NCBI GenBank assembly: GCA_016840035.1 | Contig: JAEOTC010000038.1 | Span: 32,001 to 96,000, forward strand | DNA: 64,000 nucleotides | Source: Candidatus Hodarchaeota archaeon | Lineage (GTDB): Archaea > Asgardarchaeota > Heimdallarchaeia > Hodarchaeales > Hodarchaeaceae | Direction of reading: 5' to 3' | Shown here: piece after piece, positions 36,725 through 64,000 of the stretch | Position numbering within the stretch: position 1 is the stretch's first letter | How the letters are laid out: every line of letters starts with the position of its first letter | Made by a program: the position numbers and the translations under genes | Notes under the pieces: generated by a model | What the model saw: the letters and a program-made list of their open reading frames with translations, nothing else | Database searches by the model: none | Told to the model about the DNA's origin: nothing

Positions 36725-36730
36725 GAAGTA

Positions 36731-37351: not shown

Positions 37352-37360
37352 TGGCTTTAC

Positions 37361-41598: not shown

Positions 41599-41607
41599 TA
41601 AAATAGA

Positions 41608-42642: not shown

Positions 42643-42851
42643 ATTGACTGATGAAAGACTTTGTTTAATTTTTTTCTTCAGCTTTATTATATTAAGGACG
42701 ATTTTAAATCATCTTGGAAAGAGTAACCCAACAAACTCAATGCAGCTGTGAATGAATATTGAAAAACGATTGCGTACAATCGCTATGGTATCCATATTTC
42801 AATAGAAAAGAATTACTCAAGAAGAAAAATAAGAAAAAAAGAGAAAGACAA

Positions 42852-43094: not shown

Positions 43095-43273
43095 TTTTGA
43101 TTCCCAGCTAAGTATTTCTTGTTTAATCTAGTGATGTTCTTCATATCAAATTTTGAAGTTACTTCGACTAAGCCCACTAAGATCATAGGCCGAGAGCTTA
43201 TAAAAGATACGAAAGGGGATTATGAAACTCTGAAGAATCATATTGATCTTATGATATTTCAACATAAATGTTT

Positions 43274-44077: not shown

Positions 44078-44183
44078 TTCCTCTATGGGATTCTAGAGAA
44101 AAATAGCATTTCCTTCTTTATTAGTTAAACTCAATTCGAAATCCGCTTGAATCACACTAATTTGTAGGAAAGTTCATTCTTAA

Positions 44184-44801
44184 CTAGATTTGAGTCTGTT
44201 CAACAACGACTTTTCGATATTTTATCATTTCTTTGACAAGGTATGCGAATGCAGCTTCAAGATTTTCCCCGCTTCTAATTCCTCCGGGATCTGTTGCTAC
44301 CGTTCCAAATATTTGATATGTATACTCTTTTAGATGCGCTTCAACGAATGCTTTCAGGATGAAGTCAGGAGAAAGTGCGATTGGCAAATCCTGTTTATTT
44401 GCAATCACTAAGATAGGTATTTTACCTGGTATCAATCGTAAAGCTTCATCCAACCACTGTTCATCATTTCTAAAATTCCTTTGAGAACTATCGACAATAA
44501 AAACTATCCCATCAGCTGTTCTTACAAATCGTTCATGGTATCGCATATCTAAAAACCGCTTCTGCCCACCCACATCAATTAACCCTAACACAGCAGAATC
44601 TATCTCAACATGAGATACTCCAAAGGCTATTGTTGGTTTAATATTTCTTGGGGCTGGATACCCATGTTCCAAATAGAAAGCGATGGAGGATTTCCCTACT
44701 CCGCTGGTACCAAGAAGTATCACCGAAAATATGTTATCAGATGAAGTCTGCATATGGAAATGAATCCTAGTATTACTACTAATGGCTGAAATAGTACTCA
44801 A
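44184..44801 (-). CDS. Arf/Arl-like small GTPase
   Basis: GTSGVGKS, PTIAF, DVGGQ, FIVDSS, ANKQDL. Confidence 0.85.
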   Translation of the reverse strand: MSTISAISSNTRIHFHMQTSSDNIFSVILLGTSGVGKSSIAFYLEHGYPAPRNIKPTIAFGVSHVEIDSAVLGLIDVGGQKRFLDMRYHERFVRTADGIVFIVDSSQRNFRNDEQWLDEALRLIPGKIPILVIANKQDLPIALSPDFILKAFVEAHLKEYTYQIFGTVATDPGGIRSGENLEAAFAYLVKEMIKYRKVVVEQTQI

Positions 44802-44982
44802 ACATTAGAGATATTAGTGTAAGTTAAATCTCCTATACACTAATTGAAAATGGAATCGAAACTTTAAAAGAGATTCCAAACTAAAATTAATATTAAGAAC
44901 TTGGAAAACTAACTAGTTATTTCAATAGAAATTTATGAGGATATTTTCCTATGAAAATTAGTTTTTATTTTTCCCTTTGTGA

Positions 44983-45372
44983 ATGAAAATGAACCAGAAA
45001 TCTCGCGAAATTAAAATTGAATCACTAAAGACTCCGAAAGGAGATGTACCGACTGTAAAAGGATTGGAATTGGTAATGGAACTGTTCTTTTCTGAATATA
45101 ACAAATTGGGATCTGTTATAGATTCCCTTCAGAAGAAAATTGGAGATTTATCAGGTGAGATTTCGAAACAATCAAAGCTAATGACCGATTTTGGAAAAAA
45201 TTTTTCAGATTTGATTGTAATTTTAGGGAACTTTGAACGTAAAATCGAACAACAACAATCTGCTACAGCAAATACCCGTCTCATGGAAACGACTGATTTA
45301 TTAACCTTAAAAAAGGACTTATCTCAAATTTTAACAAAATTAGAGTCATTGCTGACAATTAATGAAAGGTAA
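44983..45372 (+). CDS. Hypothetical coiled-coil protein
   Basis: 129-aa heptad-rich ORF overlapping the RING gene. Confidence 0.6.
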   Translation: MKMNQKSREIKIESLKTPKGDVPTVKGLELVMELFFSEYNKLGSVIDSLQKKIGDLSGEISKQSKLMTDFGKNFSDLIVILGNFERKIEQQQSATANTRLMETTDLLTLKKDLSQILTKLESLLTINER

Positions 45373-45595
45373 AGGCAATCCTATGAAACAAACTAGTATA
45401 AAACTAATTTCAAGTCCAATTGGATCTTGGAATCCATTTCAGACTCCCTCTAAGTGCATTATCTGTTGGAAACCGATGAAAGAGAGTGAACCTTTGATGG
45501 AGTGTCCCCACTGCCATAGTAGAGCCCACCAAGAGCACATGCTGCGCTGGTTAGCAAAGAAAGGTTATTGTCCTTTCTGTAACAATAAGTGGTAA
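45362..45595 (+). CDS. Small RING-type zinc finger protein (E3-like)
   Basis: CIIC...CPHC...HQEH...WL...CPFC. Confidence 0.8.
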   Translation: MKGKGNPMKQTSIKLISSPIGSWNPFQTPSKCIICWKPMKESEPLMECPHCHSRAHQEHMLRWLAKKGYCPFCNNKW

Positions 45596-45596
45596 T

Positions 45597-46049
45597 ATGA
45601 AGGAACTTATACATCTACCTAAAGTCATTAAAAAATTGGAACAGAACCTAGAAGGTTATTTAGGTAAGCTATTCCCGACACGAGAACGAACTTTACCTGT
45701 AAAAAAAATGAAAAGGGAAAATAATACGATAATGACATGGAATGTGTATCCTAATCCTCCTGAAAAAATTAACAAAATTTTTGTAGACTTAGAAAAAATA
45801 ATTTCGAGAATTCTCAAACATCCTATTGATGGGGAACTAATCTGTTATGAGATTAAGGCTGGTCAAATTCTTGATGGAGGAGTTAATGCCTTTTCAATAC
45901 TTCAAGGATTCAACTGGGATTTATACCTGTACCAACCTGAAATTTTCATATACATTAGGTTACAACATGAATCAGACCTTGATGTAACCAATGAATGGAT
46001 TTCAATTGATATTGACCTAGTTAATAATTCGGCCTGGTTCCTTGACTAG
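45597..46049 (+). CDS. Hypothetical protein
   Basis: 150-aa ORF starting 1 nt after the RING stop. Confidence 0.6.
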   Translation: MKELIHLPKVIKKLEQNLEGYLGKLFPTRERTLPVKKMKRENNTIMTWNVYPNPPEKINKIFVDLEKIISRILKHPIDGELICYEIKAGQILDGGVNAFSILQGFNWDLYLYQPEIFIYIRLQHESDLDVTNEWISIDIDLVNNSAWFLD

Positions 46050-46059
46050 AGTTTTCATT

Positions 46060-47004
46060 TCAAACGATTTTCCATCTCTTGGAATGGCTTTCGTATTCTG
46101 TTCGTCCTTCCACCTCCATTTCTTTGAGGAATGCATTTGCAGTTGTGGATCCCACTCCTAGTTCACTAAATGGAGATTCCCAAGATATACCAATTGTATT
46201 CATATATTCTTCTGCAATATATTGTATTTTAGCTTCCCCTTTGCTTACTAATACATCATAGATAGTATCTTTTGTGTGTTTATGTTCAAAAATTAAATTG
46301 TGAATGTACAGATCAAATGGGTGCGGAACTGGACTTTGATGGGAGGGACAAATTACTTCTGTCGTGAGATTAGATAACATTTCAAGAAGTTTCAACCGTT
46401 TTTGGGAACTGCCTGTCCCATCAATGAAGAAGGAGGCTGGTTGTTCTGGGGCAATATTAGCTTCATCACCAATAAAAGTACATTTAGCAGAATAAGCTTG
46501 TATTAAAATTGAATCTTTCGAATGACCCCCAGTAGATTGCAGAATAAGTTCTTCAGATCCAAGATCAATTGATTCACTACCACTAAAGCAAGTTATATGC
46601 TCTTCTTTAACTTTACTAATTTTTGAAAATAATGATGACTTCATTGCGAGACTGAATTTTGATGGATTCGGGAATTGCTCATCTAAAATATACTTCTGAC
46701 CTTCAGTGAGTGCTTTTTTCCCTGATTCATGGATTACAATCATCGGTTTAATTTTTGAAAGAGCACTTACTCCTGCCCAATGATCAGGGTGGGTATGAGT
46801 TAGGACTAAATACTTAATATCTGAAGTATCTCTACCTTCTTTCTTCACAAAAGATATTATATCTTTCCCAACTGATCTTGAAGGTAAATCAATTATTGCA
46901 ATCTTTTCCCCCATGACCAGATAACTGGCAAATTCTTCTTCTTGCTTACCTGTTTTTCCTACAATCCGAAAAACTCCTGGTGCCCATTCTACAAAGTTTC
47001 CCAA
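46060..47004 (-). CDS. MBL-fold metallo-hydrolase
   Basis: THTHPDH, GGHS, GDE, PSH motifs and a C-terminal winged-helix-like segment. Confidence 0.85.
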   Translation of the reverse strand: MGNFVEWAPGVFRIVGKTGKQEEEFASYLVMGEKIAIIDLPSRSVGKDIISFVKKEGRDTSDIKYLVLTHTHPDHWAGVSALSKIKPMIVIHESGKKALTEGQKYILDEQFPNPSKFSLAMKSSLFSKISKVKEEHITCFSGSESIDLGSEELILQSTGGHSKDSILIQAYSAKCTFIGDEANIAPEQPASFFIDGTGSSQKRLKLLEMLSNLTTEVICPSHQSPVPHPFDLYIHNLIFEHKHTKDTIYDVLVSKGEAKIQYIAEEYMNTIGISWESPFSELGVGSTTANAFLKEMEVEGRTEYESHSKRWKIV

Positions 47005-47177
47005 AAATATTCACCTATTTCAGTTTGATGTGACTTTTTCTGAATAAAACCCTCGTAATTTCTTTATTAATGCTTTTTGGTGGAGGAGGTCGCTTTTCTG
47101 TAAAAGATTTTCTCTGCAACAATAAAGGATAATTTTTAAAAAGAATCTCTAGAATCAAGATCGTATATGAGAGTCCT

Positions 47178-48209
47178 TTGAGGGATACCATATTGAACTT
47201 AGACGAATTAATCGAACATGGTTTTATACCAACCATTGATCCTACTTCCCCGGATTCACTAGCTAGTCAAGGAGCCAATGCTTTTCTTGCTGAATATGGA
47301 GGAGTAGTTGAAGAAGTAGCACTTGTTTGTAAAAAAGAGGACGGTTTAGTTACTTTTCGAAGTGGAGCCGCTCCTAGTGACCGTAATTATGAAAACTTTT
47401 TCACAGACTTTACCGAATTAGCTAATGACCTTGGTATGAAAACCCATGCCTTTTCCTATGCTTTTGGTGATTCTTATCTTGGATCAGATCCAAATTATTC
47501 AATAGGTCGCTCTGATGGGACACTCATGACGACTTATGTTGATCCAAGTATGGAGGGATACTGGAAACATCTTAGTCAAATTTCACGTGAGGTTGCTCGT
47601 AAACCTATTAGGTCATTAGTTCTGCAAGAATTTCTATTTCCTAGACAGGAGTTTTCTTTTTCAAAGAGAGCTGTTCGAAAATTCGCAGAATTATCAGGTG
47701 TAAGCTTAGACACGAGTTACCTTGACATTCAAAAAGACCCTTCAATTCAACGAATGTTTGAAGATTGGCGTACTGATCTCATAAGCAGAGCATTTCGTCA
47801 AGCCGTAGAAAACGCAAGAAGCGAACGTCCAAGTTTAGACATAGGCATGGTCGTACCTGTCGATCCTGAAACAGAATGGCACAACGGATTTGTGCGTCAT
47901 TATGGGATAAATCTGGATAGAATTATCGAAATTTGTGGTTATGTTATTTATCACATTATGCCCTATTCCCCTATGTACCCTGAGCCAGGTTCCCCTAGTT
48001 GGGATACTCTAACGCAAGCCCTCCGTAGTTCCAATCTCTATGAAGAAAGTGGATATAAAAAAGCCCTTTTTGTCTGGGGCTTGGATTCAGAAGACGATGT
48101 CACGTGGTTAGAAACTTTAAAACAAGAAGTTAATGCTGATAAAATATTCGCACGTCTAGAATATCCGGAGAAATATTCTGTGAAGCGTGAAATACACCGT
48201 GGGGTATAA
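47178..48209 (+). CDS. Putative TIM-barrel protein distantly like glycoside hydrolase-like family 10
   Basis: ANDLGMKTHAF, YVDPS, FSFSKRAVRKF, WRTDLI, IMPY segments; weak assignment. Confidence 0.5.
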   Translation: MRDTILNLDELIEHGFIPTIDPTSPDSLASQGANAFLAEYGGVVEEVALVCKKEDGLVTFRSGAAPSDRNYENFFTDFTELANDLGMKTHAFSYAFGDSYLGSDPNYSIGRSDGTLMTTYVDPSMEGYWKHLSQISREVARKPIRSLVLQEFLFPRQEFSFSKRAVRKFAELSGVSLDTSYLDIQKDPSIQRMFEDWRTDLISRAFRQAVENARSERPSLDIGMVVPVDPETEWHNGFVRHYGINLDRIIEICGYVIYHIMPYSPMYPEPGSPSWDTLTQALRSSNLYEESGYKKALFVWGLDSEDDVTWLETLKQEVNADKIFARLEYPEKYSVKREIHRGV

Positions 48210-48216
48210 ATCCCGA

Positions 48217-48669
48217 CTATTTTTGGTTCCAATGCGCATAACGTCGAATATAATCGCCAACCTGATTTTGAAAGACCCTTCGATTTCGCTTCCATTGGCG
48301 CGCAGCAGTCGCATTTAGGGGGTCATCGGGATTGGGACTTGTTAGAAGGAATCGAATTGTCTCCACCACCTGCACTAAACTATAAGCTGGACTCCAATCC
48401 TTCCCAAGAATACCTACACACACTTTTTCTCTGAATATGTTCACATGCCAAATGGGAGTCTTAAACCTGACCTTTGGAGGTTCAAATGGATAACTACGAG
48501 GAATTTTTATTTCAATTACAAACACTCCCCCCTCATATAACCCAGATCCTAAAATTTCACCTTTCCAGAAAGTCAAATCGTTGTTAACTGATCTAAAAGT
48601 TGGTTGTTCCCGAGTCAACTCTTGAGCTTCGATTGCAAGTCGATCTAACCATTCTTCTTCAGTTAACAG
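48217..48669 (-). CDS. Ubiquitin-conjugating enzyme E2
   Basis: YEGGVF...YPFEPPKVRFKTPIWHVNI...VCVGIL..WSP...PNPDDPLN with catalytic Cys; frame extends to a CTG at 48669 after GGTGA, giving helix 1 (WLDRLAIEAQEL). Confidence 0.93.
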   Translation of the reverse strand: MLTEEEWLDRLAIEAQELTREQPTFRSVNNDLTFWKGEILGSGLYEGGVFVIEIKIPRSYPFEPPKVRFKTPIWHVNIFREKVCVGILGKDWSPAYSLVQVVETIRFLLTSPNPDDPLNATAARQWKRNRRVFQNQVGDYIRRYAHWNQK

Positions 48670-52070: not shown

Positions 52071-53204
52071 ATGCCTGAATGGGATTTAATTCTTTACACA
52101 GACGAAAAACAGAAAAATGTTCTGAATAAACTAAAACTTTCTGATAAAACTTTGTCCGCTGCGGGCCAACACGGAAAAGCCACTATTCTCGTGGATCATC
52201 AGGGGAAAGAATGGCTTTTGAAGATTTTCTCTAATATTCTAGATTTAGAGGTAAAAAAAGTATCCGACTTGGATATCGATATTCAAGATACTCCCGAACG
52301 GAGTCGTGACCGACTTCATTTATGGCGAGTATTAAATGAGATTACAGCATCACGACTTGGAAGACGTTTGTACCTAAATGTTCCCGAAACACGGATAATT
52401 TGTTCAGGTAAGGTTGCCAAATTTAAGTTAAAGTCCTCAACAGTCCTTAAAGAAGAAGATGTGGTAGTTTTAGATGAGGAAGAGGAAGAAGGGGAATCAG
52501 CAGAGGAATTTTATTCTTTTTCTGAGCGAGAAATTGGGTCTTTGAAAACTTCTGATCGGTTTGAAGAAATTCTAGCTCAAAAAAGTCCACGGAAAAATCC
52601 CACAGATATTTTAGCTCTTCTCCAAGAAAAAGTTCCAGATTCTCGGAATATTGATGAATACTTAGATGATCATAAGGCCGATTTAGATGCAGCCTTTGAA
52701 AATATTCAAAGCATAGATGATGCTTTTCTCCTTCTGCCTTTTGATATCTGGTTAAACGATCCTGATCGAAATGCTGGCAATTATTTAGTCCAGCTGAACG
52801 AGAAAAATGAAGCTTCACGAATTTGGGGGATAGATTATGAAATGTGGTCCTTTGGAAGCGATATTTGGATGGAAGAAGATAATGTAACCCAAGGAAGAAG
52901 TTATCTTACCGCAATAATCCATCCAAAAAGTCATATTTTCGATTCACGGGTCAATCAAACATTCTACAGAATAAGAATGCTTTCCGATGAGGAAATAGTT
53001 CAAATGACTAAAGCTCCTCAATTGGCTTGTAAGTTTTTCGAATTCCACATAAATACGGGCGATCTACACCCTGATGAGAGAGATAAATTAAAGCAAGTGG
53101 AGATTAACCTTGAAGATTTTCTGATTGAGTCCCGTCCACGTTCAGATAAATTAAGTGAAATCATCACACGTCAAATAGGTTTACCTAAAGACTTTAAGAC
53201 TTGA
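52071..53204 (+). CDS. Atypical kinase of the HipA / PI3-PI4-kinase-like fold
   Basis: WLLK, NEITAS..LG..L.LNVPE, FDIWLNDPDRNAGNYLV catalytic loop, WGIDYE. Confidence 0.7.
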   Translation: MPEWDLILYTDEKQKNVLNKLKLSDKTLSAAGQHGKATILVDHQGKEWLLKIFSNILDLEVKKVSDLDIDIQDTPERSRDRLHLWRVLNEITASRLGRRLYLNVPETRIICSGKVAKFKLKSSTVLKEEDVVVLDEEEEEGESAEEFYSFSEREIGSLKTSDRFEEILAQKSPRKNPTDILALLQEKVPDSRNIDEYLDDHKADLDAAFENIQSIDDAFLLLPFDIWLNDPDRNAGNYLVQLNEKNEASRIWGIDYEMWSFGSDIWMEEDNVTQGRSYLTAIIHPKSHIFDSRVNQTFYRIRMLSDEEIVQMTKAPQLACKFFEFHINTGDLHPDERDKLKQVEINLEDFLIESRPRSDKLSEIITRQIGLPKDFKT

Positions 53205-53229: not shown

Positions 53230-54408
53230 TCATAAAACAGCACTCTCAAGCAAGTTCTTTGTCTTTAAGGCCATCATGTATTCTTCATCGGTAGGAATAA
53301 CCACAACTTCTATTTTGGATTCTGAAGATGAAATAATCACTTCTTCCTCTCCATTAGCTCCCTCGTTCTTTGAGATATCAATGGAAACATCTATACTATT
53401 CAGTCCCTTCACTATCAGTCTTCGAAAGTAAGAAGATCTCTCACCTATCCCACCTGTGAACACAATCGCGTCTAATCCTCCCAAAGCAATAAGGTACGCT
53501 CCAATATATTTCCGAATTCTGTAGGCAGCCATCTGAACAGCTAATTCTGCAGAGTGACTCCCCTTCAGAGCACTTTCCTGGATATCCCGCATATCTCTAA
53601 AATTCCCTGTAATTCCCAATAAGCCACTCCTTGAATTTAATTCTTGATCGATTTGATCAATGGTCAAATTTCCAGAACGCATCATAGCTAGTATTAAACC
53701 TGGGTCTATATCCCCCGATCGCGTGCCCATTATTAGGCCCTCTAAAGGAGTTAACCCCATACTTGTATCAATTGATTTTCCATCATATACAGCTGTTACT
53801 GAAGCTCCATTCCCAAGATGTAAGACGATTAGCTTTTTAGATTTCTTTAAACTAAGTAAACTTCTCGTTCTATTAGTCACATATTCAATAGATGTTCCAT
53901 GAAACCCATATCTCCGGAAAGAATTTTCCTCATACCACTTTCCTGAAATCGCATATCTGTATGCATATTCTGGAATCGTAGCATGAAAAGAAGTATCAAA
54001 AACTGCAATATGAGGAATAGCTGTTAATTTTTTTTTACTAGCTCGGATTCCAATTAGATTAGCGGGATTATGAAGTGGGGCAAGCTTTGATAGTTTTTCT
54101 ATCTGAGATTCAACCTCAGTATCAATGATCAATTCTCTTCGGAACTGTTCTCCCCCATGTACTACACGGTGAGCTACAGCTTTAATCGTATTAATGTCGA
54201 AGAATGTTAAGACATAATCTACAGCCTCTTCATGAGTAGCACAACTTATTACCTTGGTAACTTCCTCCTCCTTGCTTTTATGATATATCTTTGGTTCAGG
54301 GAGGCCTATTCGTTCCACTAATCCTTTAGCTATTAGCTGTTCTTTCTCCATGTTATAGATCGAATATTTTAGAGAGGAAGATCCTGAATTTATCGTTAAA
54401 ATTGTCAA
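53230..54408 (-). CDS. ackA: Acetate kinase
   Basis: INSGSSSLKY, HRVVHGG, APLHN, RRYGFHGTS, GTRSGDIDP, FTGGIGE. Confidence 0.96.
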   Translation of the reverse strand: MTILTINSGSSSLKYSIYNMEKEQLIAKGLVERIGLPEPKIYHKSKEEEVTKVISCATHEEAVDYVLTFFDINTIKAVAHRVVHGGEQFRRELIIDTEVESQIEKLSKLAPLHNPANLIGIRASKKKLTAIPHIAVFDTSFHATIPEYAYRYAISGKWYEENSFRRYGFHGTSIEYVTNRTRSLLSLKKSKKLIVLHLGNGASVTAVYDGKSIDTSMGLTPLEGLIMGTRSGDIDPGLILAMMRSGNLTIDQIDQELNSRSGLLGITGNFRDMRDIQESALKGSHSAELAVQMAAYRIRKYIGAYLIALGGLDAIVFTGGIGERSSYFRRLIVKGLNSIDVSIDISKNEGANGEEEVIISSSESKIEVVVIPTDEEYMMALKTKNLLESAVL

Positions 54409-54418
54409 AAAGACCCCT

Positions 54419-55867
54419 CTAGTAGGTACCTTTAGGTGTATCAGTCCCTTTTACAATAGCAATGGATGCTGATGCACCAATCCTAGTTGCTCCAGCGTTT
54501 ATCATCTGCTCTGCAATCTCGTGAGTTCTTATCCCTCCAGCTGCTTTTACACCCATTTCTGGACCTACTGTTTTTCTCATCAGAGCAATATCCTCAACTA
54601 ATGCTCCTGCAGTACTGAAACCTGTAGAAGTTTTAACAAAATCTGCTCCACTTAATTTTGTTAACAGACTACCTTTAACTATTTGTTCCTTGGTTAGTAG
54701 AGCAGTTTCAAGAATGACCTTTACTATGGCTTTCCCTGCAGCGGCATTTACTACCGCTTGGATATCCTCCCTAACTAAGTCATCGTTACCTGATTTCAAC
54801 GCTCCCACGTTAATAACCATGTCTACTTCATCTGCTCCATTTGCTACAGCATCTCGAGTTTCAATTGCCTTTACGGTGGGGGTAGTTGCTCCTAATGGAA
54901 ATCCAATTACAGTACATACTTTCACTGAGCTACTTTTCAAATATTTGGCTGCTTTTGCTACATTTGTAGGATTAATACATACTGATGCGAATTTATACGT
55001 TGCAGCTTCTTCACATAGTTGTTTAATCTCTTCTTCAGTTGCATCTGCACGGAGATTAGTATGGTCGATATACTGAGCAAGCTCCATATCATACCCATTT
55101 ATCCCTGTCTCAGAGGTAATTCTTGTTGCTCCTCCATTAACTAATGCTTTAACAGCAGCTTGAGACTTTCCATCTAATCCAATCTCTTTCCCTGAAGTCC
55201 CAATTGTGTATGATCGATCAGAGGTGGTTGGGATATAGGGAGAGGGTTCTTGATCAGTTATCTGATGAACATCAACAATTTTGATTCCCATAGTCCTTAA
55301 TTGATCAATAATTCCCTCAATACGTCTATTCATTGCAGGTGGGACTTGATCTTTCTCAATCTGACAACAGTAGATGGAATCATATGCTGCAATAACTGGT
55401 TTTCCATACATCAATCCAAATACTAGGGTTATAGTTCCCAAGGAATCTGCGTTCAAGGCCGCTACTTTAGCTGCAGTATTTAAGGATAATATAGGCACAT
55501 AAATAACATCTACCCGACTTAAAATATTGTCAAAAAACTGTTCAGAATAATCAGTAATAATTGTGGCTCCTTCAGAGACTTGTCTAATATCAGGTAAACC
55601 AATTATTTTTATTGCTGCACGAGTCATTACGATGTAAGTATTAGTATACGATTTTGAGATTTTTTCTATTTGGTGCATAACTTCATTAATCTCTTTATTC
55701 CCCCCACATAGTAGAATTAAAGCTGAGTTTCCTGAAGCTATTGTATAATTGATTTTCCGATTAGAAGTCTGTAAATTCGAATCGAACTGTTGTTTGGGAG
55801 CGAGATTATCTTGATCAAGCTTCCTCATCACTTCTTCAGTGATTTTCTGTATCATCTCATTACTCAT
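54419..55867 (-). CDS. deoC: Encapsulation peptide, flavoprotein-like domain and deoxyribose-phosphate aldolase fusion
   Basis: C-terminal [41 protein letters not shown]; N-terminal flavoprotein-like [12 protein letters not shown]. Confidence 0.9.
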
Positions 55868-55887
55868 TTTCTTTACCCAAAATTATT

Positions 55888-56178
55888 TTAACTTAATTCA
55901 GTTTGTTTTCCATCCACTTCAATATAATCAATAACACCTACTATTAATGCATCCACAGCGGCTTTGTCATTATGCATTATACCTCGTATAGAGTTACCTT
56001 CTCGGATAACAAGGACACAATCCCCGATTCCAGATTTGGCTACATCTAGAGCGATGATAGAAGGCTCAGTGAAATTTCCTTTCAGATCTATCGGACGTAC
56101 CACAAGTATTTTTCCGTTTTCATGACTCTCAGTTTTAATTGGAGCAACTACATTGCCGATTACTTTAGCAAGAATCAT
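55888..56178 (-). CDS. BMC pentameric vertex protein (EutN/CcmL)
   Basis: MILAKVIGNVVAPIK...ALD...GIGDCVL...VDALIVGVID. Confidence 0.93.
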   Translation of the reverse strand: MILAKVIGNVVAPIKTESHENGKILVVRPIDLKGNFTEPSIIALDVAKSGIGDCVLVIREGNSIRGIMHNDKAAVDALIVGVIDYIEVDGKQTELS

Positions 56179-56717
56179 TCTGTTTCACTTTCTACAATTT
56201 TTGGTTTAATTTCACGAATCTTTTTTGGTTTCTTCTTTCGAGTGGCCCTTTTTCTTGGTTTTGGTTTAACTACGGGCTTAATTTCTTCAACTACTTCGGG
56301 TTCCTCTACTTTCGTTTTCGGGATCGGTTCAAGTATCTCCTCTTTGGGAATTTCCCCGATTTCTTCATCTAGACTTATATCAACTTGTTTTAATGTTGCT
56401 GGAGGGGCCTTCTTCTTCTTTCTCTTCTGAGGTTTGCGTTTTGCACTTTTTGTAACATAATATTCCTCAATATATCCAACTATACACTCATCAATCGGAA
56501 CGAGTTCCTTTGGAAAGACAATAGCTGCCTCCTTTTTACTTACTACATACACAATATCTCCAGGTCCTGCAGTTTCAATGCCATCAGCGGCAACATATGG
56601 ACTTCCCAAGGGTTGAAGATTATCATCTAGACCTTGAACTACTAGAAGTCGGAGAGAATTTAATCCTGGATCTTTTGTTGAGGCAACAACATTCCCTATT
56701 ACTTTTCCAAGTTTCAT
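56175..56717 (-). CDS. BMC pentameric vertex protein (EutN/CcmL) with long Lys/Arg-rich tail
   Basis: MKLGKVIGNVVASTK...AAD...AGPGD...PIDECIVG then about 90 low-complexity residues. Confidence 0.92.
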   Translation of the reverse strand: MKLGKVIGNVVASTKDPGLNSLRLLVVQGLDDNLQPLGSPYVAADGIETAGPGDIVYVVSKKEAAIVFPKELVPIDECIVGYIEEYYVTKSAKRKPQKRKKKKAPPATLKQVDISLDEEIGEIPKEEILEPIPKTKVEEPEVVEEIKPVVKPKPRKRATRKKKPKKIREIKPKIVESETE

Positions 56718-56721
56718 GTAA

Positions 56722-57180
56722 TCACGCTGATTTTAAATATTTCAATTCAATCTCGGAAATCTTATTTACTCTGGTCTCGTGTCTTCCACCACCGAAAGGA
56801 GTAGATAACCAAATCTTAACAATATTTTGCGCAATTCCTGGACCAATTACTCTCGCACCTAAAGTCAGGATGTTAGAATTATTGTGTTCACGAGCGGAAT
56901 TCGCAGTAAATTCATCCGTGCAAGGAGTTGCTCGAATTCCTTTAATTTTATTTGCTACAATTGCGCTAGCTACGCCTGTACCATCGATGAGAATCCCAAC
57001 GGATTCAACTGAGACTGCAACTGTTTGTGCTACTAATAATGCAATATCAGGATAATCCACAGGATCTGTAGAATAACAACCATAGTCCGCAACTTCGTAT
57101 CCTATTCCTTTCAGGAATTTTATCAGATCATTTTTGAGATGGAAACCACCATGATCCGATCCAATTATTATTTTCTTCAT
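56722..57180 (-). CDS. rpiB: Ribose-5-phosphate isomerase B family protein
   Basis: IGSDHGG, VDYPD, IDGTGV, ANKIKGIRA, REHNNSN, GARVIG, FGGGRH. Confidence 0.93.
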   Translation of the reverse strand: MKKIIIGSDHGGFHLKNDLIKFLKGIGYEVADYGCYSTDPVDYPDIALLVAQTVAVSVESVGILIDGTGVASAIVANKIKGIRATPCTDEFTANSAREHNNSNILTLGARVIGPGIAQNIVKIWLSTPFGGGRHETRVNKISEIELKYLKSA

Positions 57181-57205
57181 TTGACTTCAACTTGTAATAT
57201 AAAAC

Positions 57206-57757
57206 TCAAAGCAGAGTTTTTACTAGATCTGGATGAGGAGCAGGAATTACAGCAGTGGATAATACTAATCCTTCTCCTTTTACACGATTAACCCCAGCAT
57301 CTACAGCTGCTCGCACGGCACCCACTTCTCCTGTTAAAACAACAAACGCCTTTCCACCTATTGCGCGACTCATCCGAATTTCGATTAACTGTACCTGCGC
57401 ACTTTTAACAGCTTCGTCACCAACCATGATCGCTGTAGGAGCAGAATAAGTTTCTACTACTCCTATCGCGCCTACTTTTTCAACTCCAGATGTACCCGCA
57501 ATTGCTGGAAAAACCTCAGGATGTATATTGGGAATTACTGTGTAATTTACTAAGGTTTCACCTGCTATTTCACTTCCAGCGATTAGAGAGCTTTGAACAG
57601 CTGCAACTGCTCCTTGAATAATGATTAAATATTTTCCAGGACATACTGGTGAGGCGAATAATAGCTCGACTTCTGCTGTTTTCGCTATTGTATCGGCACT
57701 CAGTATACCTCGAGCAATTACATTTGTTTCTAGAACTCCTATAGCACGCATTTTCAT
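57206..57757 (-). CDS. BMC-T tandem-domain shell protein (PduT-like)
   Basis: Two BMC domains, VCPGKY, IGGKAF, VIPAPH. Confidence 0.92.
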   Translation of the reverse strand: MKMRAIGVLETNVIARGILSADTIAKTAEVELLFASPVCPGKYLIIIQGAVAAVQSSLIAGSEIAGETLVNYTVIPNIHPEVFPAIAGTSGVEKVGAIGVVETYSAPTAIMVGDEAVKSAQVQLIEIRMSRAIGGKAFVVLTGEVGAVRAAVDAGVNRVKGEGLVLSTAVIPAPHPDLVKTLL

Positions 57758-57827
57758 TTTCCTCTAAGATTGTAAACAAAGATGAAAGTAGTGAGCATTA
57801 GCTGCTCTCTTGCAGCTAATTGTTTAT

Positions 57828-58106
57828 TCAACCTTTCTTTGGGAGAATACTCTCAACTTCATCATGGGGTCGAGGAATTACATGAGCTGAGGTTAGTTCA
57901 CCAACTTTTCGTGCAGCGACTGCACCAGCTTCAACAGAAGCTTTCACAGCACCAACGTCACCTCTAACCATTACAGTAACAAAACCACCGCCAATAACTT
58001 CGCGTCCCATTAAATGAACGTTCGCTGCTTTCACCATAGCGTCAGCTGCTTCAATAGATGCAACTAACCCTTTTGTTTCTATCAATCCAAGTGCTTCTTT
58101 AGCCAT
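57828..58106 (-). CDS. BMC-H hexameric shell protein (PduA/EutM-like)
   Basis: [10 protein letters not shown]...[12 protein letters not shown]...RGDVGAVKA...HVIPRPH. Confidence 0.97.
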
Positions 58107-58130
58107 TTTTTTCACCAATTTTTTTGTCTT

Positions 58131-59456
58131 TTATTTTGTCTTTTCAATGACAATTTCTTGTCCAATTTTGCGAATAATTCCGCTAATACTAGCATGAATT
58201 ACTGCACCTAGTGACCCATCTGGAATCTTTCCTATGAGTGCACCTTTTTCAACCGAATCTCCTACTTTTACCGTTGGAATTGCAGGATCTCCGATATGTT
58301 GTTTGAGAGGGATGGAAACTTTTCGAATCTGTAATTTTCGTTTTCGTATTGGACATTCATGATTATAATTCAATAGATCCAATCGTGAAATTAATCTTTT
58401 TACAGGTAATTTTCGATATTCCCTCTCAGGATGAATCGATAATACTTTTCGATTATGAGTATTCTTTAAACCCTCTACCCTCAACTGTCCCTTTACTTCT
58501 GTCATCATTTTACATGGATCCAACCCCATAGGACATCCATAATATGTACAAGCTCCACATTCCACACAAAGGAATGTTCCCGTCATATAATCGGGTCTTT
58601 CTGGAGCACCCCATGCTATTCCTCGCATAACTTTGTCAGGATGTAATTCATGGCCCAATAAGAATCTAGGACAGACATCTGTACATAATTGACATCTTAT
58701 GCATGCTGCTTTGGTAACAATTACTTTGGATGAGATCCGTTCAGTTTTCATTCTGATTACAAAATGATTCTCTGGCAAAACAATTATTCCAGAAGTTAAT
58801 TTGGTAATAGGTTTTTTAGGGGCAATTACTGTACCCATCATGGGTCCATTTATCAATACTTGATAATCATCGATTGTAGCTCCCCCTGCAGCTTTTATTG
58901 CATCCTTTATTGAGGTACCAATTGGAAATTCCATCGTAGAGGGGTTTTTAACAGCGCCTGTTATGGTTACATAACGAGATACTATGGGATTTCCTTCAGC
59001 GGCCTCAGCTAGATTGATCAATGTATAGACATTATTTACTACGACTCCAATGTCAAGAGGGAGTCCACTTTCCGGAATTATTTTACCTAAAGCTTCATAA
59101 ACAAGAACATGTTCATCTCCAGCAGGATAAACATCATCGAGAAGGAATATCTCGATTCTGGAATCAGCTTTGACCACTTGTTTAAGCTTCTTAATTGCAG
59201 TTTTATACTTCCTTTTTACAGCGATTATTCCTCGCTTCGCCCCAGTGGCTTTCATTCCTAGCTGTAATCCAGTTATTAATTTTCCTGGACAGGTTGTCAT
59301 TAATTGCTGATCCACTCTTAATAATGGTTCACATTCAGCTGCATTAACTATAAACGTATCTACTTTCGCAGAAAGCTTCACATGTGTAGGAAAACCAGCT
59401 CCACCAGCTCCAACTATTCCAGAATTTCGTGCCATGTCTGCTATTTCGGAGCTCAC
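58131..59456 (-). CDS. PduS/RnfC-like flavin and Fe-S reductase
   Basis: GIVGAGGAGFPTHVK, NAAECEP, YPAGDE, GPMMG, two Fe-S motifs, LKQHIG, HASISG. Confidence 0.9.
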   Translation of the reverse strand: MSSEIADMARNSGIVGAGGAGFPTHVKLSAKVDTFIVNAAECEPLLRVDQQLMTTCPGKLITGLQLGMKATGAKRGIIAVKRKYKTAIKKLKQVVKADSRIEIFLLDDVYPAGDEHVLVYEALGKIIPESGLPLDIGVVVNNVYTLINLAEAAEGNPIVSRYVTITGAVKNPSTMEFPIGTSIKDAIKAAGGATIDDYQVLINGPMMGTVIAPKKPITKLTSGIIVLPENHFVIRMKTERISSKVIVTKAACIRCQLCTDVCPRFLLGHELHPDKVMRGIAWGAPERPDYMTGTFLCVECGACTYYGCPMGLDPCKMMTEVKGQLRVEGLKNTHNRKVLSIHPEREYRKLPVKRLISRLDLLNYNHECPIRKRKLQIRKVSIPLKQHIGDPAIPTVKVGDSVEKGALIGKIPDGSLGAVIHASISGIIRKIGQEIVIEKTK

Positions 59457-59483
59457 TTATATTTGCCTCGTTTTCTTTTGATT

Positions 59484-60911
59484 TCAAATGATTCTAAAAG
59501 CATCCACTAGAGTACAACGTCTTTGACGTGTAAAAGTTCTTGCTGAGGTAAGTCCTTCTCCCGTTGGTCCTGCAATTGTCATAGTAGTATAGCCTTCCCC
59601 TCCGAATCCAATCCCAGCAAAGGAGGGGGCATTTTTGACAAAAATTGTAGTTTCGATATCTTTTGCCACAAGACTCATATTTCCAACTGAATCGCTCCAC
59701 ATCATTGCTGTGTGTTTGAATCCATGTTCAGCCTTCTTTGCTTTTTGCAAAGCTTCTTCTATTGATTTCACTCTAACTATTGGTAAGACTGGCATCAACA
59801 TTTCAGATATTACGAAGGGATGTTCATCATCAGGCACCTCTGCAATTATCAACCGGATATTGTCACTAACCTGCACTCCGATTCCCTCAAGAAGTATTTT
59901 GGCATCTTTTCCGATGAAGTCCCTGTTTACTATGGGAAATCTCCCTTTCTTTCCTTTGAAAACGAGATTAGTCAGTTGGACTATCTGATCTCCAACAATT
60001 TCATATGCACCATAATTCTTCATTTCTGCTTTTAATCGATCAGTGATGACATCAAATGCGAATACTTCTTTTTCTACAATACATACAATATTATTATCAA
60101 AACTTGCGCCTTCTACTATTCCTCGGGCTGCTTTTTGAATATTTGCAGTATCATCAACTATTACAGGAGGATTTCCTGGTCCTGCACATATCGCTTTTTT
60201 TCCAGATTGCATTGCAGCTTTTACTACTGCACTTCCTCCTGTTACAACTAGACACCGAATCTTTTTGTGTGTCATTAAAGTCTGGGCTGACTCAATCGTA
60301 GGGGATATGGTTGATGTAAGAACATTTTCTGGTCCCCCCGCTTCGAGAATTGCCCTATTCAATAATCTCACAGCTTCATTACTTGCTCTTTTAGCTGATG
60401 GATGAGGATTAAATACTACGCTATTTCCTGCCGTAACCATTGATATTCCATTGTTAATTATCGTTGCTGTTGGGTTTGTTGAAGGAGTAATTGACCCAAT
60501 TACGCCATAAGGAGCCATTTCAACAAGTGTTAATCCTTTATCACCCGTCCATGTATTTGGTACCAGATCTTCTAAGCCTGGAGTTTTTCGAGCACAGAGC
60601 AAATTCTTTGCTACTTTATCCTCTAATCTCCCTAGACCAGTTTCTTGGATTGCTAATTCAGCTAGATATCGTGCATGTTTAATAGCGGAGTCACGCATCG
60701 ATTGTATGATTTCTTTTCTTCTCTCCAAAGATAAATCCATTAGTGCTACTTGACTCTTTTCCGCAGCCTCTATTGCCTGTTCAATGTCCTGGAATATTCC
60801 TCCACCTGCACTAGTGGGAATATTCTCCAATCCTGAATAGACTTGATAAGCTCTTATTTTCTGTACAACAGAATTGACGATTTTTGCAATTTGTTGTTCG
60901 TCATATGACAT
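59484..60911 (-). CDS. CoA-acylating aldehyde dehydrogenase (EutE/PduP-like) with N-terminal encapsulation peptide
   Basis: TPSTNP, VTGG, AGPGNPP, SFDNNIVCIVEK, EMLMP, TGEGLTSARTFTRQRRC. Confidence 0.95.
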   Translation of the reverse strand: MSYDEQQIAKIVNSVVQKIRAYQVYSGLENIPTSAGGGIFQDIEQAIEAAEKSQVALMDLSLERRKEIIQSMRDSAIKHARYLAELAIQETGLGRLEDKVAKNLLCARKTPGLEDLVPNTWTGDKGLTLVEMAPYGVIGSITPSTNPTATIINNGISMVTAGNSVVFNPHPSAKRASNEAVRLLNRAILEAGGPENVLTSTISPTIESAQTLMTHKKIRCLVVTGGSAVVKAAMQSGKKAICAGPGNPPVIVDDTANIQKAARGIVEGASFDNNIVCIVEKEVFAFDVITDRLKAEMKNYGAYEIVGDQIVQLTNLVFKGKKGRFPIVNRDFIGKDAKILLEGIGVQVSDNIRLIIAEVPDDEHPFVISEMLMPVLPIVRVKSIEEALQKAKKAEHGFKHTAMMWSDSVGNMSLVAKDIETTIFVKNAPSFAGIGFGGEGYTTMTIAGPTGEGLTSARTFTRQRRCTLVDAFRII

Positions 60912-60958
60912 TTATCTACCTTCGTTTCGTTTTTTATTTTCTTACATAAAGGGAAATC

Positions 60959-61249
60959 TTATTTTCGATAAGTTTCTTTTCCATTTATTTGGATAAAATC
61001 TATGATAGCTTGGATCGTTGCATCTGTGGGTTTATCCTTGGTCATTGCAGTTAAACGAGATGAACTTCCAGTAACAACTAGTACTAATTCGTTCTCTCCC
61101 GCACCAACTGCATCAATTGCCACGAAAGGAGAACTCTCTGGTTTTAAATCAGTCATATCCACTGGTTGTACTATCATTAATTTAAAGCCTTTAATACTGG
61201 CATCCTTCTCGGTACTTACTACATTTCCTATTACTTTACACACTTTCAT
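60959..61249 (-). CDS. BMC pentameric vertex protein (EutN/CcmL)
   Basis: KVIGNVVSTEK...VAIDAVGAGENELVL...GSSSR...DATIQAIID. Confidence 0.95.
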   Translation of the reverse strand: MKVCKVIGNVVSTEKDASIKGFKLMIVQPVDMTDLKPESSPFVAIDAVGAGENELVLVVTGSSSRLTAMTKDKPTDATIQAIIDFIQINGKETYRK

Positions 61250-61260
61250 GTAAATATCTC

Positions 61261-61980
61261 CTAAATCTTAATTATCTTTATATCAAGCATTTTAGCTTTT
61301 TCTTGTGCTAAGGGGGTAATAATAGTTGAATGGGGTACAAATATTTCGTGAATTTTACCTTTTAATCCCTCTAAATAATCCTCGGTAATTAAATCTGGTA
61401 TAGCTGGAGTATGTTTGACAAATTGATCTTCTAAGTCCTCTATGTCAACAAGTCTGAATCCCATTTCGATTAAAGTAGATAAATATCGACTCAGATTATT
61501 AGTTAACATACCCGATGGGCCATAGTCAAATGTTAAATCTGTGGGAGGAAAAGGTGTTACAATATAAACAGGAATTTTAAATAACAACCCTTGAAGTAAT
61601 AAATTAACAGTTGAATTGGAATCTTCAAATTTTGTTATTTTTTTTGCTATTTCAAAACTAAAGGCACCAAACATAATTGATTTAAGATTACTGTAAAAAT
61701 TTAGGCAAAAATCTCCAAAAGGATTAACTAAAACGTCCATTGTGGGAATTGAACCTGCTTTTGTGGTTATTTTCTTAGCCTGGTCAATTTCATCCTTTGT
61801 CCAGATCAGGACTTGCATTTTTTGTTCGGCTAATCTAATTAGGGATTGTAATAATTCATCCAATCCTTGTCCCATATGGGTTAAGACACCTAGGACATCG
61901 TAAGGACCTAGGTTATGCTCATTCTTGAGAACACTCTTAACTTGCTGTGTAACGAGTAATTCGAGCTCTTTCTCATTCAT
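61261..61980 (-). CDS. BMC-associated protein (encapsulation peptide, degenerate flavoprotein-like domain, IITPLA C-terminal module)
   Basis: MNEKELELLVTQQVKSVL helix; LITEDYL...IITPLAQEKAKMLDIKI module typical of BMC loci. Confidence 0.7.
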   Translation of the reverse strand: MNEKELELLVTQQVKSVLKNEHNLGPYDVLGVLTHMGQGLDELLQSLIRLAEQKMQVLIWTKDEIDQAKKITTKAGSIPTMDVLVNPFGDFCLNFYSNLKSIMFGAFSFEIAKKITKFEDSNSTVNLLLQGLLFKIPVYIVTPFPPTDLTFDYGPSGMLTNNLSRYLSTLIEMGFRLVDIEDLEDQFVKHTPAIPDLITEDYLEGLKGKIHEIFVPHSTIITPLAQEKAKMLDIKIIKI

Positions 61981-61995
61981 GATGCTTCACTCTTG

Positions 61996-62316
61996 TTAAT
62001 CTCTTCCAGGATCCTCTTCTACGCTTGAAGTTCGACTTCTGACTTTCTCAATAAGATCAACCGTCACCTGATCAGGTCTTGGAATTACATTAGTTAATAA
62101 ACCACAGGAGATCTGACGTAGTTGGACTTTTGCTGCTTCAATTGCTTCACGGACAGCAGCGACCTCTCCCTCAATTATCACAATAACCAATCCCCCTGAA
62201 ACACGTTTTAAGGAAATAAGGCTCACATCTGCGGTTTTCATGGCCGTATCTGTTGCCACAATGGCTCCTATCCGACCGCATGTCTCCATAAATCCTAAAG
62301 CTTTCATTAAAATCAC
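61996..62316 (-). CDS. BMC-H shell protein
   Basis: KALGFMETCG...DTAMKTADV...EGEVAAVREA...NVIPRP. Confidence 0.93.
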   Translation of the reverse strand: MILMKALGFMETCGRIGAIVATDTAMKTADVSLISLKRVSGGLVIVIIEGEVAAVREAIEAAKVQLRQISCGLLTNVIPRPDQVTVDLIEKVRSRTSSVEEDPGRD

Positions 62317-64000
62317 CTGAACGGAGAATAAGATCCTTCTTTTAAATCCAAAATCAGACTCCCCATTTCTCCCGTATTCAGTGCAAGAGCATTACCCTCG
62401 TCAAGGTCTAAATGGAGCTCCAAATTATAATCCGGGTGAATTCTAACCATGATCTCGTCTAGGATTCCAGCTCGGGTTCCAGGAAATTGAACAGCAACTA
62501 TCTGTCGATCTGACACATTTAACCTTTGCGCATCTTTTGGTGACATGTGGATGTGTCGCGCTGCGAAAATGACTCCCTTATCCAAAGTGATAGCTCCCTT
62601 TGGACCAATTATGTGTACTCCTGGAGTATCTCTTAAATCTCCTGATTGACGTGTTGGTGGATTAATACCTAATACATAACCGTCACTCCGAGATATTTCA
62701 ACTTGAGTTTCGTCTCTGAAGGGGCCAAGAATACGAACTCCATAGATGGCTCTTTTGGGGCCGATTAGATCAACAACTTCTTTGCATGCATACTGTTTTG
62801 GTTGAGTTAAGGAATTAAGGGGAGTTAAAACTGCTTTTTCTCCAAATAATTTGTGAAAATCGGCTTTTGAAAGGTGGATGTGACGTGCAGATAAGGATAC
62901 TGGAATTAAATGATCATCGAATACTTTAGTCAGCTCATCGGTGACTAATCTCTTCACTAGTTCTCCAGCTGCTGACTGTGTACTTCGTTGTGAAATGGGT
63001 TGATATTCACAACCTAATGGACCGCAATATCTTCCTACATATTCAGCAGAGGGTCTATAAATCACTGGTTTGACGGTAGGAGTTTCGGGATACTTCTCTT
63101 CTAAAACATGAGCAGTCCAACCAGCGACTCTCGATGTAGTAAAAATCGGTGTAAAGAGTTCAACTGGGATATTTAAGCTTGTATATACCGTGGCACCATA
63201 TAGATCCACATTAGGATATATTCCACGATTTTTTCGCTTCTTAAATTCTTTTTGAGTAATCTCAACCAACTTATTGGTAGTTTCATACATCCATTGAGCT
63301 AATCCACCCTTCCTTCTCACAAGATCTGCAGCCATTTCCTTCAATATTTTGGCTCTCGGATCTGTAGTTTTATATACGGCATGTCCCATCCCCATAATTC
63401 GTTTACCTTCATTAAATCGATTTTTGACCCATTCCTCAGCACTTGAGACTTTCTTAATCTCCATTAAGCTTTCATAAACTAAATGATTAGCTCCCCCATG
63501 ATACATCCCTGATAAAGAACCAATGGCACCAGAAATAGATGCATATAGATCCGCTCCAGTAGATGCAATGACCCGAGCTGTGAATGTGGAAGCATTGAAA
63601 GAGTGTTCTGCATGTAGAATTAGTGTGACATCAAAGATCCTTGCTTCTTCATCAGTTGGGATACTCCCATGAAGCATGTAGAGGAAATTTGATGCATATT
63701 TTAGATTCTTATTTGGAGCGATTGGTTCTTTATTGCTACGAATTCTCTCCCATGCGGTCACAATAATAGGAAGCCGAGCTATTATTCTAATTGCAATATT
63801 TCGATCGGATTCTCTTTTTCCAGTCCCGATCTCGTTGTTGTATCCTGCTAGTAAAGCTAATGAAGATTGGAGTACACTCATAGAAGGGGTATTCTTTGAG
63901 GTTTTCTGTAAATGTGAGATTAATTGTGGTGGTAAATCCTGATTTGAAATTATTGCGTTCTTAAAACTCTCCAATTGATCAAAAGAGGGGAGGTTTCCGT
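62313..64000 (-). CDS. Citrate synthase-family domain fused to PduL phosphotransacylase (5' end beyond the window)
   Basis: LHAEHSFNAST, HGGAN, MGMGHAVY, YPNVD, then SARHIHLS...QVEIS..D...RHIHM...LHLDLDEGNA; frame is open to the window edge (GNLPSFDQL). Confidence 0.9.
   Translation of the reverse strand, partial: GNLPSFDQLESFKNAIISNQDLPPQLISHLQKTSKNTPSMSVLQSSLALLAGYNNEIGTGKRESDRNIAIRIIARLPIIVTAWERIRSNKEPIAPNKNLKYASNFLYMLHGSIPTDEEARIFDVTLILHAEHSFNASTFTARVIASTGADLYASISGAIGSLSGMYHGGANHLVYESLMEIKKVSSAEEWVKNRFNEGKRIMGMGHAVYKTTDPRAKILKEMAADLVRRKGGLAQWMYETTNKLVEITQKEFKKRKNRGIYPNVDLYGATVYTSLNIPVELFTPIFTTSRVAGWTAHVLEEKYPETPTVKPVIYRPSAEYVGRYCGPLGCEYQPISQRSTQSAAGELVKRLVTDELTKVFDDHLIPVSLSARHIHLSKADFHKLFGEKAVLTPLNSLTQPKQYACKEVVDLIGPKRAIYGVRILGPFRDETQVEISRSDGYVLGINPPTRQSGDLRDTPGVHIIGPKGAITLDKGVIFAARHIHMSPKDAQRLNVSDRQIVAVQFPGTRAGILDEIMVRIHPDYNLELHLDLDEGNALALNTGEMGSLILDLKEGSYSPFR

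Follow-up and report, generated by a model that had tools for sequence, protein, structure and literature searches.

A type I AMC operon, a probable sugar-phosphate metabolosome of bacterial descent, in the chromosome of a Hodarchaeales archaeon

Operons for protein-shelled compartments, designated AMCs, were described in 66 of 111 Hodarchaeales genomes by Du et al. (bioRxiv, 18 Nov 2025, PMC12747264). Type I AMCs were defined in that study by a citrate synthase fused to a PduL-type phosphotransacylase (CS+PTAC), a flavoprotein-fold domain fused to deoxyribose-5-phosphate aldolase (Flav+DERA), a protein termed DUF, a metabolosome NADH dehydrogenase (MNdh) accompanied by a single-trimer shell protein (Ts) bearing a CPGK motif, and an intrinsically disordered region (IDR) of the vertex protein P2. 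Du et al. reported that shells assembled in E. coli from B3_Heim genes, that cargo recruitment depended on helices, that the P2 IDR binds DNA and RNA, and that the operon is transcribed in cultured SC1; transfer from Myxococcota was inferred, and Flav+DERA was described as distinctive of most operons in Hodarchaeales and as uncommon in bacterial microcompartments (BMCs). In bacteria, SPU metabolosomes include the PTAC-bearing subtypes SPU1, SPU4 and SPU7 (Axen 2014, PMC4207490; PMC11585597), whose pattern is an AldHD with an encapsulation peptide, RPI, PTAC, a PduS homolog and no BMC-Tdp (PMC11585597). In this study, we analysed a 64,000-nucleotide stretch of the Candidatus Hodarchaeota archaeon assembly GCA_016840035.1 (contig JAEOTC010000038.1, positions 32,001 to 96,000; hereafter, the window), in which a sequence-only reading had recognised an SPU-type microcompartment locus. 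With a probability of ca. 0.85, this locus is a type I AMC operon of Hodarchaeales, that is, an SPU metabolosome of bacterial descent which is now stably established in the chromosome and inherited vertically.

The operon consisted of 13 minus-strand genes spaced by −4 to 70 nt, all with intact reading frames, and ran from position 53230 to 64169, overrunning the window by 169 nt (Table 1). Genes were called from the list of open reading frames and then from Pfam and NCBIfam profile matches, and the part of CS+PTAC beyond the window was taken from the adjoining segment of the same contig (L005, C184:94001-112000). Every gene received a firm assignment except the one for a 239-aa protein. The direction of transcription is from the high-coordinate end, with CS+PTAC first and AckA last. 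A sigma-70 promoter and terminator scan yielded fewer promoter-like sites than shuffled sequences, the sigma-70 model not being relevant to an archaeal host. The two BMC-H, one BMC-T and three BMC-P proteins, DeoC, RpiB, aldehyde dehydrogenase (AldDH), PduS and AckA that the sequence-only reading had listed were each recovered in place by frames and profiles, and so was the co-orientation with short gaps. Two of its entries had to be amended. The PduL domain was present (PF06130, E 2e-70), but its frame is a 618-aa citrate synthase-PduL fusion; likewise, the aldolase domain of DeoC stood but was confined to residues 264-465, and the 255-aa flavoprotein-fold domain at its N-terminus had been overlooked. 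The list was also incomplete, since the 239-aa gene had been left out.

The gene content was compared with the type I definition. The shell set lay inside 11 kb, with four PF00936 domains spread over three genes and a further three genes matching PF03319, and the shell is predicted from these profiles to be composed of H1, H2, a PduT-like T protein and three pentamers. None of the 13 frames matched PF00121 or PF00596, and there was no third BMC-H, TPI or class II aldolase, in agreement with the two H, one Ts and three P proteins of type I. The probable true start of BMC-H2 is the ATG at residue 5. BMC-T was the only tandem-BMC protein of the operon; it is PduT-like (best NCBIfam match, eut_PduT), carries a CPGK motif at residues 39-42, and is not joined by a BMC-Tdp. 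BMC-P2 consisted of a pentamer domain (residues 1-85) followed by a basic-acidic-basic, predicted disordered tail of 95 aa (K+R, 31%; net charge, +12). The Lys/Arg-rich disordered region of type I P2 proteins measures 36 to 137 aa, and the tail is the counterpart of the AMC-P2 IDR found by Du et al. to bind DNA and RNA. Flav+DERA, CS+PTAC, DUF and MNdh with a CPGK-bearing Ts were all present, and the host belongs to Hodarchaeales, as seen from the same-genus genomes and from the ESCRT, ubiquitin-system and small-GTPase genes in the window.

The enzymes retained the residues expected of their families. The aldolase domain of Flav+DERA (about residues 262-472) kept both lysine motifs, KTSTG (Lys412) and KAAGG (Lys441), and was 65-73% identical to ordinary bacterial DERAs. 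AldDH had its Cys-containing motif. MNdh contained NuoF-type FMN/NADH, SLBB and RnfC_N domains and two 4Fe-4S motifs (Cys residues within 252-262 and 297-308), and scored 272 bits with TIGR01945, above the cut-off. In CS+PTAC, the citrate synthase domain (PF00285, E 1e-122, residues 11-373) and the PduL domain (PF06130, residues 423-597) carried the citrate synthase His/His/Asp motifs and the PduL His motifs, respectively, and the protein scored 246 bits with NF011652 (cut-off, 209). Dozens of fused homologs of 609 to 620 aa were found, and every labelled one came from Hodarchaeales or Heimdallarchaeota. The nearest labelled stand-alone citrate synthases outside the Hodarchaeales-, Heimdall- and Odin-labelled matches were from Bathyarchaeia or Nanoarchaeia (53-55% identity), which hints at an archaeal origin of this module, although the labels are too few for certainty. 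The general claim that the fused enzyme is the sole citrate synthase of these organisms was rejected, as a second, stand-alone citrate synthase of 384 aa was encoded in the single-contig genome G010 (C1:509856-510899) and in G002 (C100:28301-29344). In the genome studied here (87% complete) and in G006, the fused, helix-bearing form was the only full-length citrate synthase found. A single AckA and a single RpiB were found in the genome, both in the operon.

Amphipathic helices occurred at the four expected places, in Flav+DERA, AldDH, DUF and CS+PTAC, and match the four encapsulation peptides reported by Du et al. The helix at residues 3-18 of Flav+DERA resembled an encapsulation peptide and exceeded the rest of the protein in hydrophobic moment; that of AldDH was N-terminal (residues 6-20, with a hydrophobic moment of 0.68, ranking fifth among 461 windows), and that of CS+PTAC lay in the linker (about residues 401-419).

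The AlphaFold2 (AF2) model of the Flav domain had a Rossmann-like core (residues ~46-211, pLDDT 80-90), and Foldseek against the PDB retrieved UbiX, EpiD, MrsD, TvaF and CoaC (E 3e-7 to 1e-5; target-normalised TM, 0.54-0.72), placing the domain in the HFCD/UbiX fold. A profile search of PDB sequences with the same domain gave no matches. The flavin-binding motifs were degenerate, most so in DUF: by eye, the P-loop-like first motif of Flav reads CGGN, and a second motif of the PxxxNTxAK type is retained. DUF aligned with the Flav domain (BLASTP, E 7e-6; hhalign, 96%, E 3e-9 over 212 columns), and its AF2 model had a confident Rossmann-like core with UbiX-like Foldseek matches (E about 1e-3). 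By these comparisons, DUF and the Flav domain are paralogs, DUF being the degenerate copy; it starts with a helix, continues with a flavoprotein-fold domain that has degenerated, and has at its C-terminus a motif of TIGR02536/PduM type. Only this C-terminal part (residues 183-238) matched TIGR02536 (E 3e-4; 20.4 bits, cut-off 152.6), and it also weakly matched PduM. The positional counterparts of DUF in the Myxococcota, Firmicutes and L042 loci matched TIGR02536 over their full length with up to 39 bits (E 6e-10 in L042 and 7e-10 in L044). By these scores, DUF is a distant relative of TIGR02536 and not a member of the family. Only seven homologs of the 239-aa protein were retrieved among 1.8 billion representative proteins; it belongs to a fast-evolving family, so that profile and fold methods are needed to follow it. 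BMC-associated flavoproteins are known from EUT2B/2D loci with PduS and acetate kinase and from GRM3 loci with acetate kinase. The fold common to Flav and DUF is that of the HFCD/UbiX flavoproteins, but the scores obtained here fall far below the curated cut-offs of TIGR02536 (eut_hyp) and PF02441. Our best guess is that Flav and DUF may act as oligomerising scaffolds or as electron-shuttle accessories.

Because BMC genes are classically bacterial and the assembly consists of 293 contigs with an estimated contamination of 4%, a chimeric contig, or bacterial contamination binned into an archaeal genome, had to be weighed. The operon lies on a contig of 142.8 kb, flanked on one side by ESCRT and ubiquitin genes of Asgard type and on the other by colinear archaeal genes. 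A genome search grouped the genome in a genus with 21 other species representatives, including B3_Heim, YT2_004, bin6 and bin272, and the order E2-orf98-MetG-orf377-operon-CxxCxxCC protein-flavin reductase was found in four same-genus genomes (G002, G006, G008 and G010), two of which are single contigs (G010, CP070695.1; G008, CP070760.1). This conserved flanking synteny already refutes a chimera, which we regard as practically excluded. Identities to the four syntenic genomes were comparable in the flank (MetG, 71-86%) and in the operon (AldDH, 76-94%), and orf377 was kept beside MetG in all nine relatives examined, with 57-85% identity, whether the operon was present or absent. A composition break at about 53.2 kb or absence from all related genomes would have refuted the sequence-only reading; the GC content ran flat across this junction (0.36-0.41 in the operon, 0.34-0.44 in the whole window), and the same operon and flanks were present in the four genomes above. 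Compared with the G006 orthologs, dS of the operon genes was 0.3-2.7, of the same saturated order as that of the flanking MetG and orf377, and dN/dS was 0.00-0.11 for every gene, indicating that the genes are under purifying selection. These observations support the conclusion that the operon is probably native to the chromosome, stable and vertically inherited.

The distribution within the order was patchy: BMC domains occurred in nine of 24 genomes, all of one genus, and were absent in the other 15. At the locus of G010 (L012), AckA was missing, and MetG and orf377 were separated by an insertion of 4.4 kb; in G008 (L013), the citrate synthase (402 aa) was apparently unfused, and PTAC is presumed to be a separate gene. 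This patchiness, the loss of AckA and the apparent separation of CS and PTAC are what would be expected if the operon were a decaying relic of an old transfer that makes no compartment. However, the 13 intact frames, the low dN/dS, and a BMC-H2 that was 99% identical to its G006 ortholog (dN = 0) stand against decay, as do the transcription in the cultured strain SC1 and the shell assembly from B3_Heim genes reported by Du et al., the B3_Heim proteins being 75-96% identical to those of the operon, and we consider a relic very improbable.

The nearest bacterial-labelled homologs of DERA and AldDH were from Deltaproteobacteria, Polyangia or Myxococcota, and the nearest bacterial loci were those of Myxococcota GCA_018820615.1 (L041) and Deltaproteobacteria GCA_016937155.1 and GCA_021162935.1 (L034 and L035), all with the gene order PTAC-DUF-P-AldDH-MNdh-T-P-TIM-RpiB-P/H-DERA. 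Their proteins were 41-79% identical to those of the operon, and P1, P2 and P3 each had a one-to-one ortholog. The DeoC proteins of 224 to 240 aa annotated in these three loci proved to be the C-terminal part of open frames of 480 to 638 aa, which stay open 250 to 400 codons upstream. The Myxococcota frame aligned end to end with the 482-aa Flav+DERA of the window (46% identity, E 5e-139). The fusion was not present in two Firmicutes SPU loci examined. It is evidently not an archaeal peculiarity and, judging from these frames, came with the bacterial cassette. The linker between Flav and DERA contains a CxxCxxC motif in the bacterial proteins that is absent from the archaeal one. Like the operon, the three bacterial loci have the PTAC-DUF-P-AldDH-MNdh core order, three P proteins, a single T protein and no Tdp, RpiB, Flav+DERA as the last cargo gene, and the N-terminal helix of AldDH; unlike the operon, they have TIM and lack the citrate synthase, the basic P2 tail and an in-locus AckA. 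In comparison with them, the archaeal operon appears to have acquired AckA, a basic tail on P2 and the fusion to citrate synthase, while TIM was lost. The horizontal acquisition proposed in the sequence-only reading is supported by the shared order, the orthology of P1, P2 and P3, and the rare fusion.

In a FastTree tree of 117 AldDH sequences, the core Asgard clade and the Myxococcota/Deltaproteobacteria clade each had a support of 100 and were joined in a basal polytomy. An IQ-TREE analysis of eight proteins from 12 taxa placed Hodarchaeales with Myxococcota/Deltaproteobacteria, Krumholzibacteriia and one further genome, against two Firmicutes (97/95). An alignment-based scan of genome contigs with AldDH covered nine loci only, with no broad bacterial sample, and the patterns fell on the lineage-specific N-terminal helix. 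A further locus, L042 (GCA_041890195.1, JBEEQD010000007.1; 530 kb, GC 53%), had the order PTAC-H-DUF-P-AldDH-MNdh-T-H-H-TIM-RpiB-P-H-P-Flav+DERA. It resembles the type II form and was nearer to the operon than Myxococcota for MNdh (52%), RpiB (60%) and Flav (34%).

With the signature enzyme DERA (PF01791), RpiB, AldDH, PTAC, a PduS homolog and no BMC-Tdp, the operon shows the SPU1/4/7 pattern, and the assignment to SPU-type metabolosomes made from the sequence alone was upheld. The following pathway is suggested by the enzyme families. Flav+DERA, AldDH, DUF and CS+PTAC would be targeted to the lumen via their amphipathic helices. Deoxyribose-5-phosphate from nucleoside breakdown would enter the shell and be split by DERA into glyceraldehyde-3-phosphate and acetaldehyde, and the trapped acetaldehyde would be oxidised by AldDH to acetyl-CoA with formation of NADH. 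CoA could be recycled within the shell either by PduL, with the acetyl-phosphate converted by AckA to acetate and ATP, or by the fused citrate synthase, yielding citrate. NAD+ would be regenerated by the PduS-like flavo-iron-sulfur protein, whose electrons would leave the shell by way of an Fe-S cluster located at the CPGK pore of the T trimer. From the vertices, P2 may extend its Lys/Arg-rich tail, which would bind nucleic acid, as was shown for an ortholog by Du et al. Nucleoside phosphorylases of the PNP_UDP_1 family and mutases of the PGM/PMM family, four of each, are encoded in the genome and could plausibly supply the substrate.

Several points weigh against the reading of the locus as an SPU metabolosome of bacterial descent. 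The substrate and all pathway steps are predicted from family membership only. The bacterial-type phosphopentomutase DeoB (TIGR01696) was not found in the genome, so that the conversion of deoxyribose-1-phosphate to deoxyribose-5-phosphate rests on a PGM/PMM homolog, and the operon has no BMC-Tdp, the type of pore by which sugar phosphates are proposed to pass in other SPU subtypes. The Flav domain scored 15.5 bits with PF02441, under the gathering cut-off of 22.7, so that any flavin binding is putative. Neither the AldDH tree nor the 12-taxon concatenated tree resolved Myxococcota as the sister group, and the donor assignment therefore rests mainly on Du et al.; the shared fusion and gene order are the only support for a Myxococcota donor added here.

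The shell might instead enclose other chemistry: DERA could be promiscuous and act on some other aldol substrate, ribose phosphate or another pentose phosphate could be routed by RpiB, or the net reaction could be an aldol synthesis. Scavenging of DNA would then not be the function of the compartment. The pathway above gives RpiB no explained role, the missing DeoB would fit such an alternative, a lumenal citrate synthase and a pair of flavoprotein-fold proteins lie outside the canonical SPU scheme, and relatives lacking the operon keep a separate DERA and aldehyde:ferredoxin oxidoreductase (AOR), so that the shelled route is not the only way in which the genus handles this sugar. Nevertheless, DERA scored far above the cut-off of the deoC equivalog and has the high identity to ordinary bacterial DERAs given above, an SPU6 DERA was shown to use deoxyribose-5-phosphate, and AldDH, PTAC and AckA form the standard core for acetaldehyde handling. 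We consider other chemistry unlikely, though less so than contamination or decay, and retain the deoxyribose-5-phosphate metabolosome.

In four operon-lacking relatives, orf377 adjoined a divergent, inverted CxxCxxCC gene, the product of which was 31-39% identical to that of the window's counterpart, implying that the slot was rearranged and not simply emptied. Three of these four same-genus relatives (G015, G018 and G003) carried in the same slot a co-oriented pair of genes for an AOR (PF02730 and PF01314) and a 289-aa DERA, beyond which colinearity with the window's contig resumed. The 289-aa DERA had a Cys-rich C-terminal tail and no N-terminal extension. It was considered, and rejected, as a relic of the operon or as the host source of the AMC DERA, as it was only about 52% identical to the operon DERA, compared with 65-73% for bacterial DERAs, and differed in the tail and in the missing N-terminal extension. 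Of five operon-bearing genomes searched for it, four gave no match (in G020, the query recovered no DERA whatever), nor was it found in the genome studied here. The pair looks like an unshelled alternative route for deoxyribose-5-phosphate. The evidence is about evenly balanced on a wider proposal, namely, that the one slot bounded by orf377 and the colinear block downstream holds either the 11-kb shelled AMC operon or the unshelled DERA and AOR; that the lineage swapped ferredoxin-linked cytosolic and NADH/CoA-linked compartmentalised routes there; and that the archaea changed the bacterial cassette only by fusing citrate synthase to PTAC, adding the basic tail of P2 and AckA, and losing TIM, Flav+DERA and DUF having come with the cassette. 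Such a slot with two modules would let nature itself show how one toxic aldehyde is handled with and without a shell.

Upstream of the operon, a block of Asgard eukaryote-like genes extended over window positions 34316-48618. The archaeal, ESCRT-containing neighbourhood seen in the sequence-only reading was confirmed, with VPS28, UEV, EAP30, ThiF, E2 and Arf/Ras GTPase genes all in the window.

Table 1. Positions of the operon genes, neighbouring genes and related genes in other genomes. Plain numbers are window positions; prefixed numbers refer to the locus named.
Feature	Position	Strand	Size and profile matches
CS+PTAC (citrate synthase+PduL fusion), operon gene 1	62313-64169 (L005:313-2169)	-	618 aa; first 169 nt outside the window; PF00285, PF06130
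BMC-H1 hexamer	61996-62316	-	106 aa as listed; PF00936 E 4e-21
DUF protein	61261-61980	-	239 aa; no Pfam match
BMC-P1 vertex pentamer	60959-61249	-	96 aa; PF03319 E 2e-29
CoA-acylating AldDH (EutE/PduP type)	59484-60911	-	NF011927 660 bits, cut-off 403
PduS-like metabolosome NADH dehydrogenase (MNdh)	58131-59456	-	PF01512 E 8e-46, PF10531, PF13534, PF13375
BMC-H2 hexamer	57828-58118	-	PF00936 E 8e-29
BMC-T, single-trimer, PduT-like	57206-57757	-	two PF00936 domains, E 2e-43
RpiB (ribose-5-phosphate isomerase B)	56722-57180	-	PF02502 E 3e-52
BMC-P2 vertex pentamer with 95-aa tail	56175-56717	-	180 aa; PF03319 E 2e-20, residues 1-83
BMC-P3 vertex pentamer	55888-56178	-	96 aa; PF03319 E 5e-20
Flav+DERA fusion (DeoC)	54419-55867	-	482 aa; TIGR00126 287 bits, cut-off 117
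AckA (acetate kinase), last operon gene, 10 nt after Flav+DERA	53230-54408	-	PF00871 E 3e-133; TIGR00016 451 bits, cut-off 293
orf377	52071-53204	+	377 aa; no Pfam/NCBIfam match
CxxCxxCC protein, divergent operon neighbour just past the window	L005:2403-3350	+	PF03692
EAP30/Vps22-36	34316-35035
VPS28	36731-37351
UEV/E2-like	37361-38095
Ras-family GTPase	38297-39511
Yip1	40849-41598
ThiF E1-like	41608-42642
KaiC-like ATPase	43274-44077
Arf-family GTPase	44184-44801
E2	48217-48618
Bacterial Flav+DERA frame	L041:16395-17834
Bacterial Flav+DERA frame	L034:9248-10720
Bacterial Flav+DERA frame	L035:8759-10672
DERA+AOR pair (G015)	L021:10581-13264
DERA+AOR pair (G018)	L022:6259-8897
DERA+AOR pair (G003)	L024:5629-8248

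The doubt about novelty that accompanied the sequence-only reading was justified, as the system had already been described by Du et al.; beyond that study and a companion preprint citing it, no other paper was found in the literature search. The operon is real and was correctly read, but it is already known. What is added here is that Flav+DERA also occurs in bacteria, where it was truncated by annotation, that DUF is a paralog of Flav and a distant TIGR02536 relative, and that DERA and AOR occupy the same slot in three of four operon-lacking relatives. The present analysis is of value in that an independent genome confirms the system and in these three refinements. That the closest archaeal relatives of eukaryotes should contain a protein organelle of bacterial type is relevant to compartmentalised metabolism and bacterial gene flow before eukaryogenesis, and for this reason the preprint of 2025 attracted attention. 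The closest described system is the type I AMC operon of B3_Heim (GCA_003144275, NJBF01000010.1; L014/L032), a different species of the same genus: its gene set, gene order and flanks are as found here, its proteins are 71-96% identical, and no difference of substance separates the two operons.

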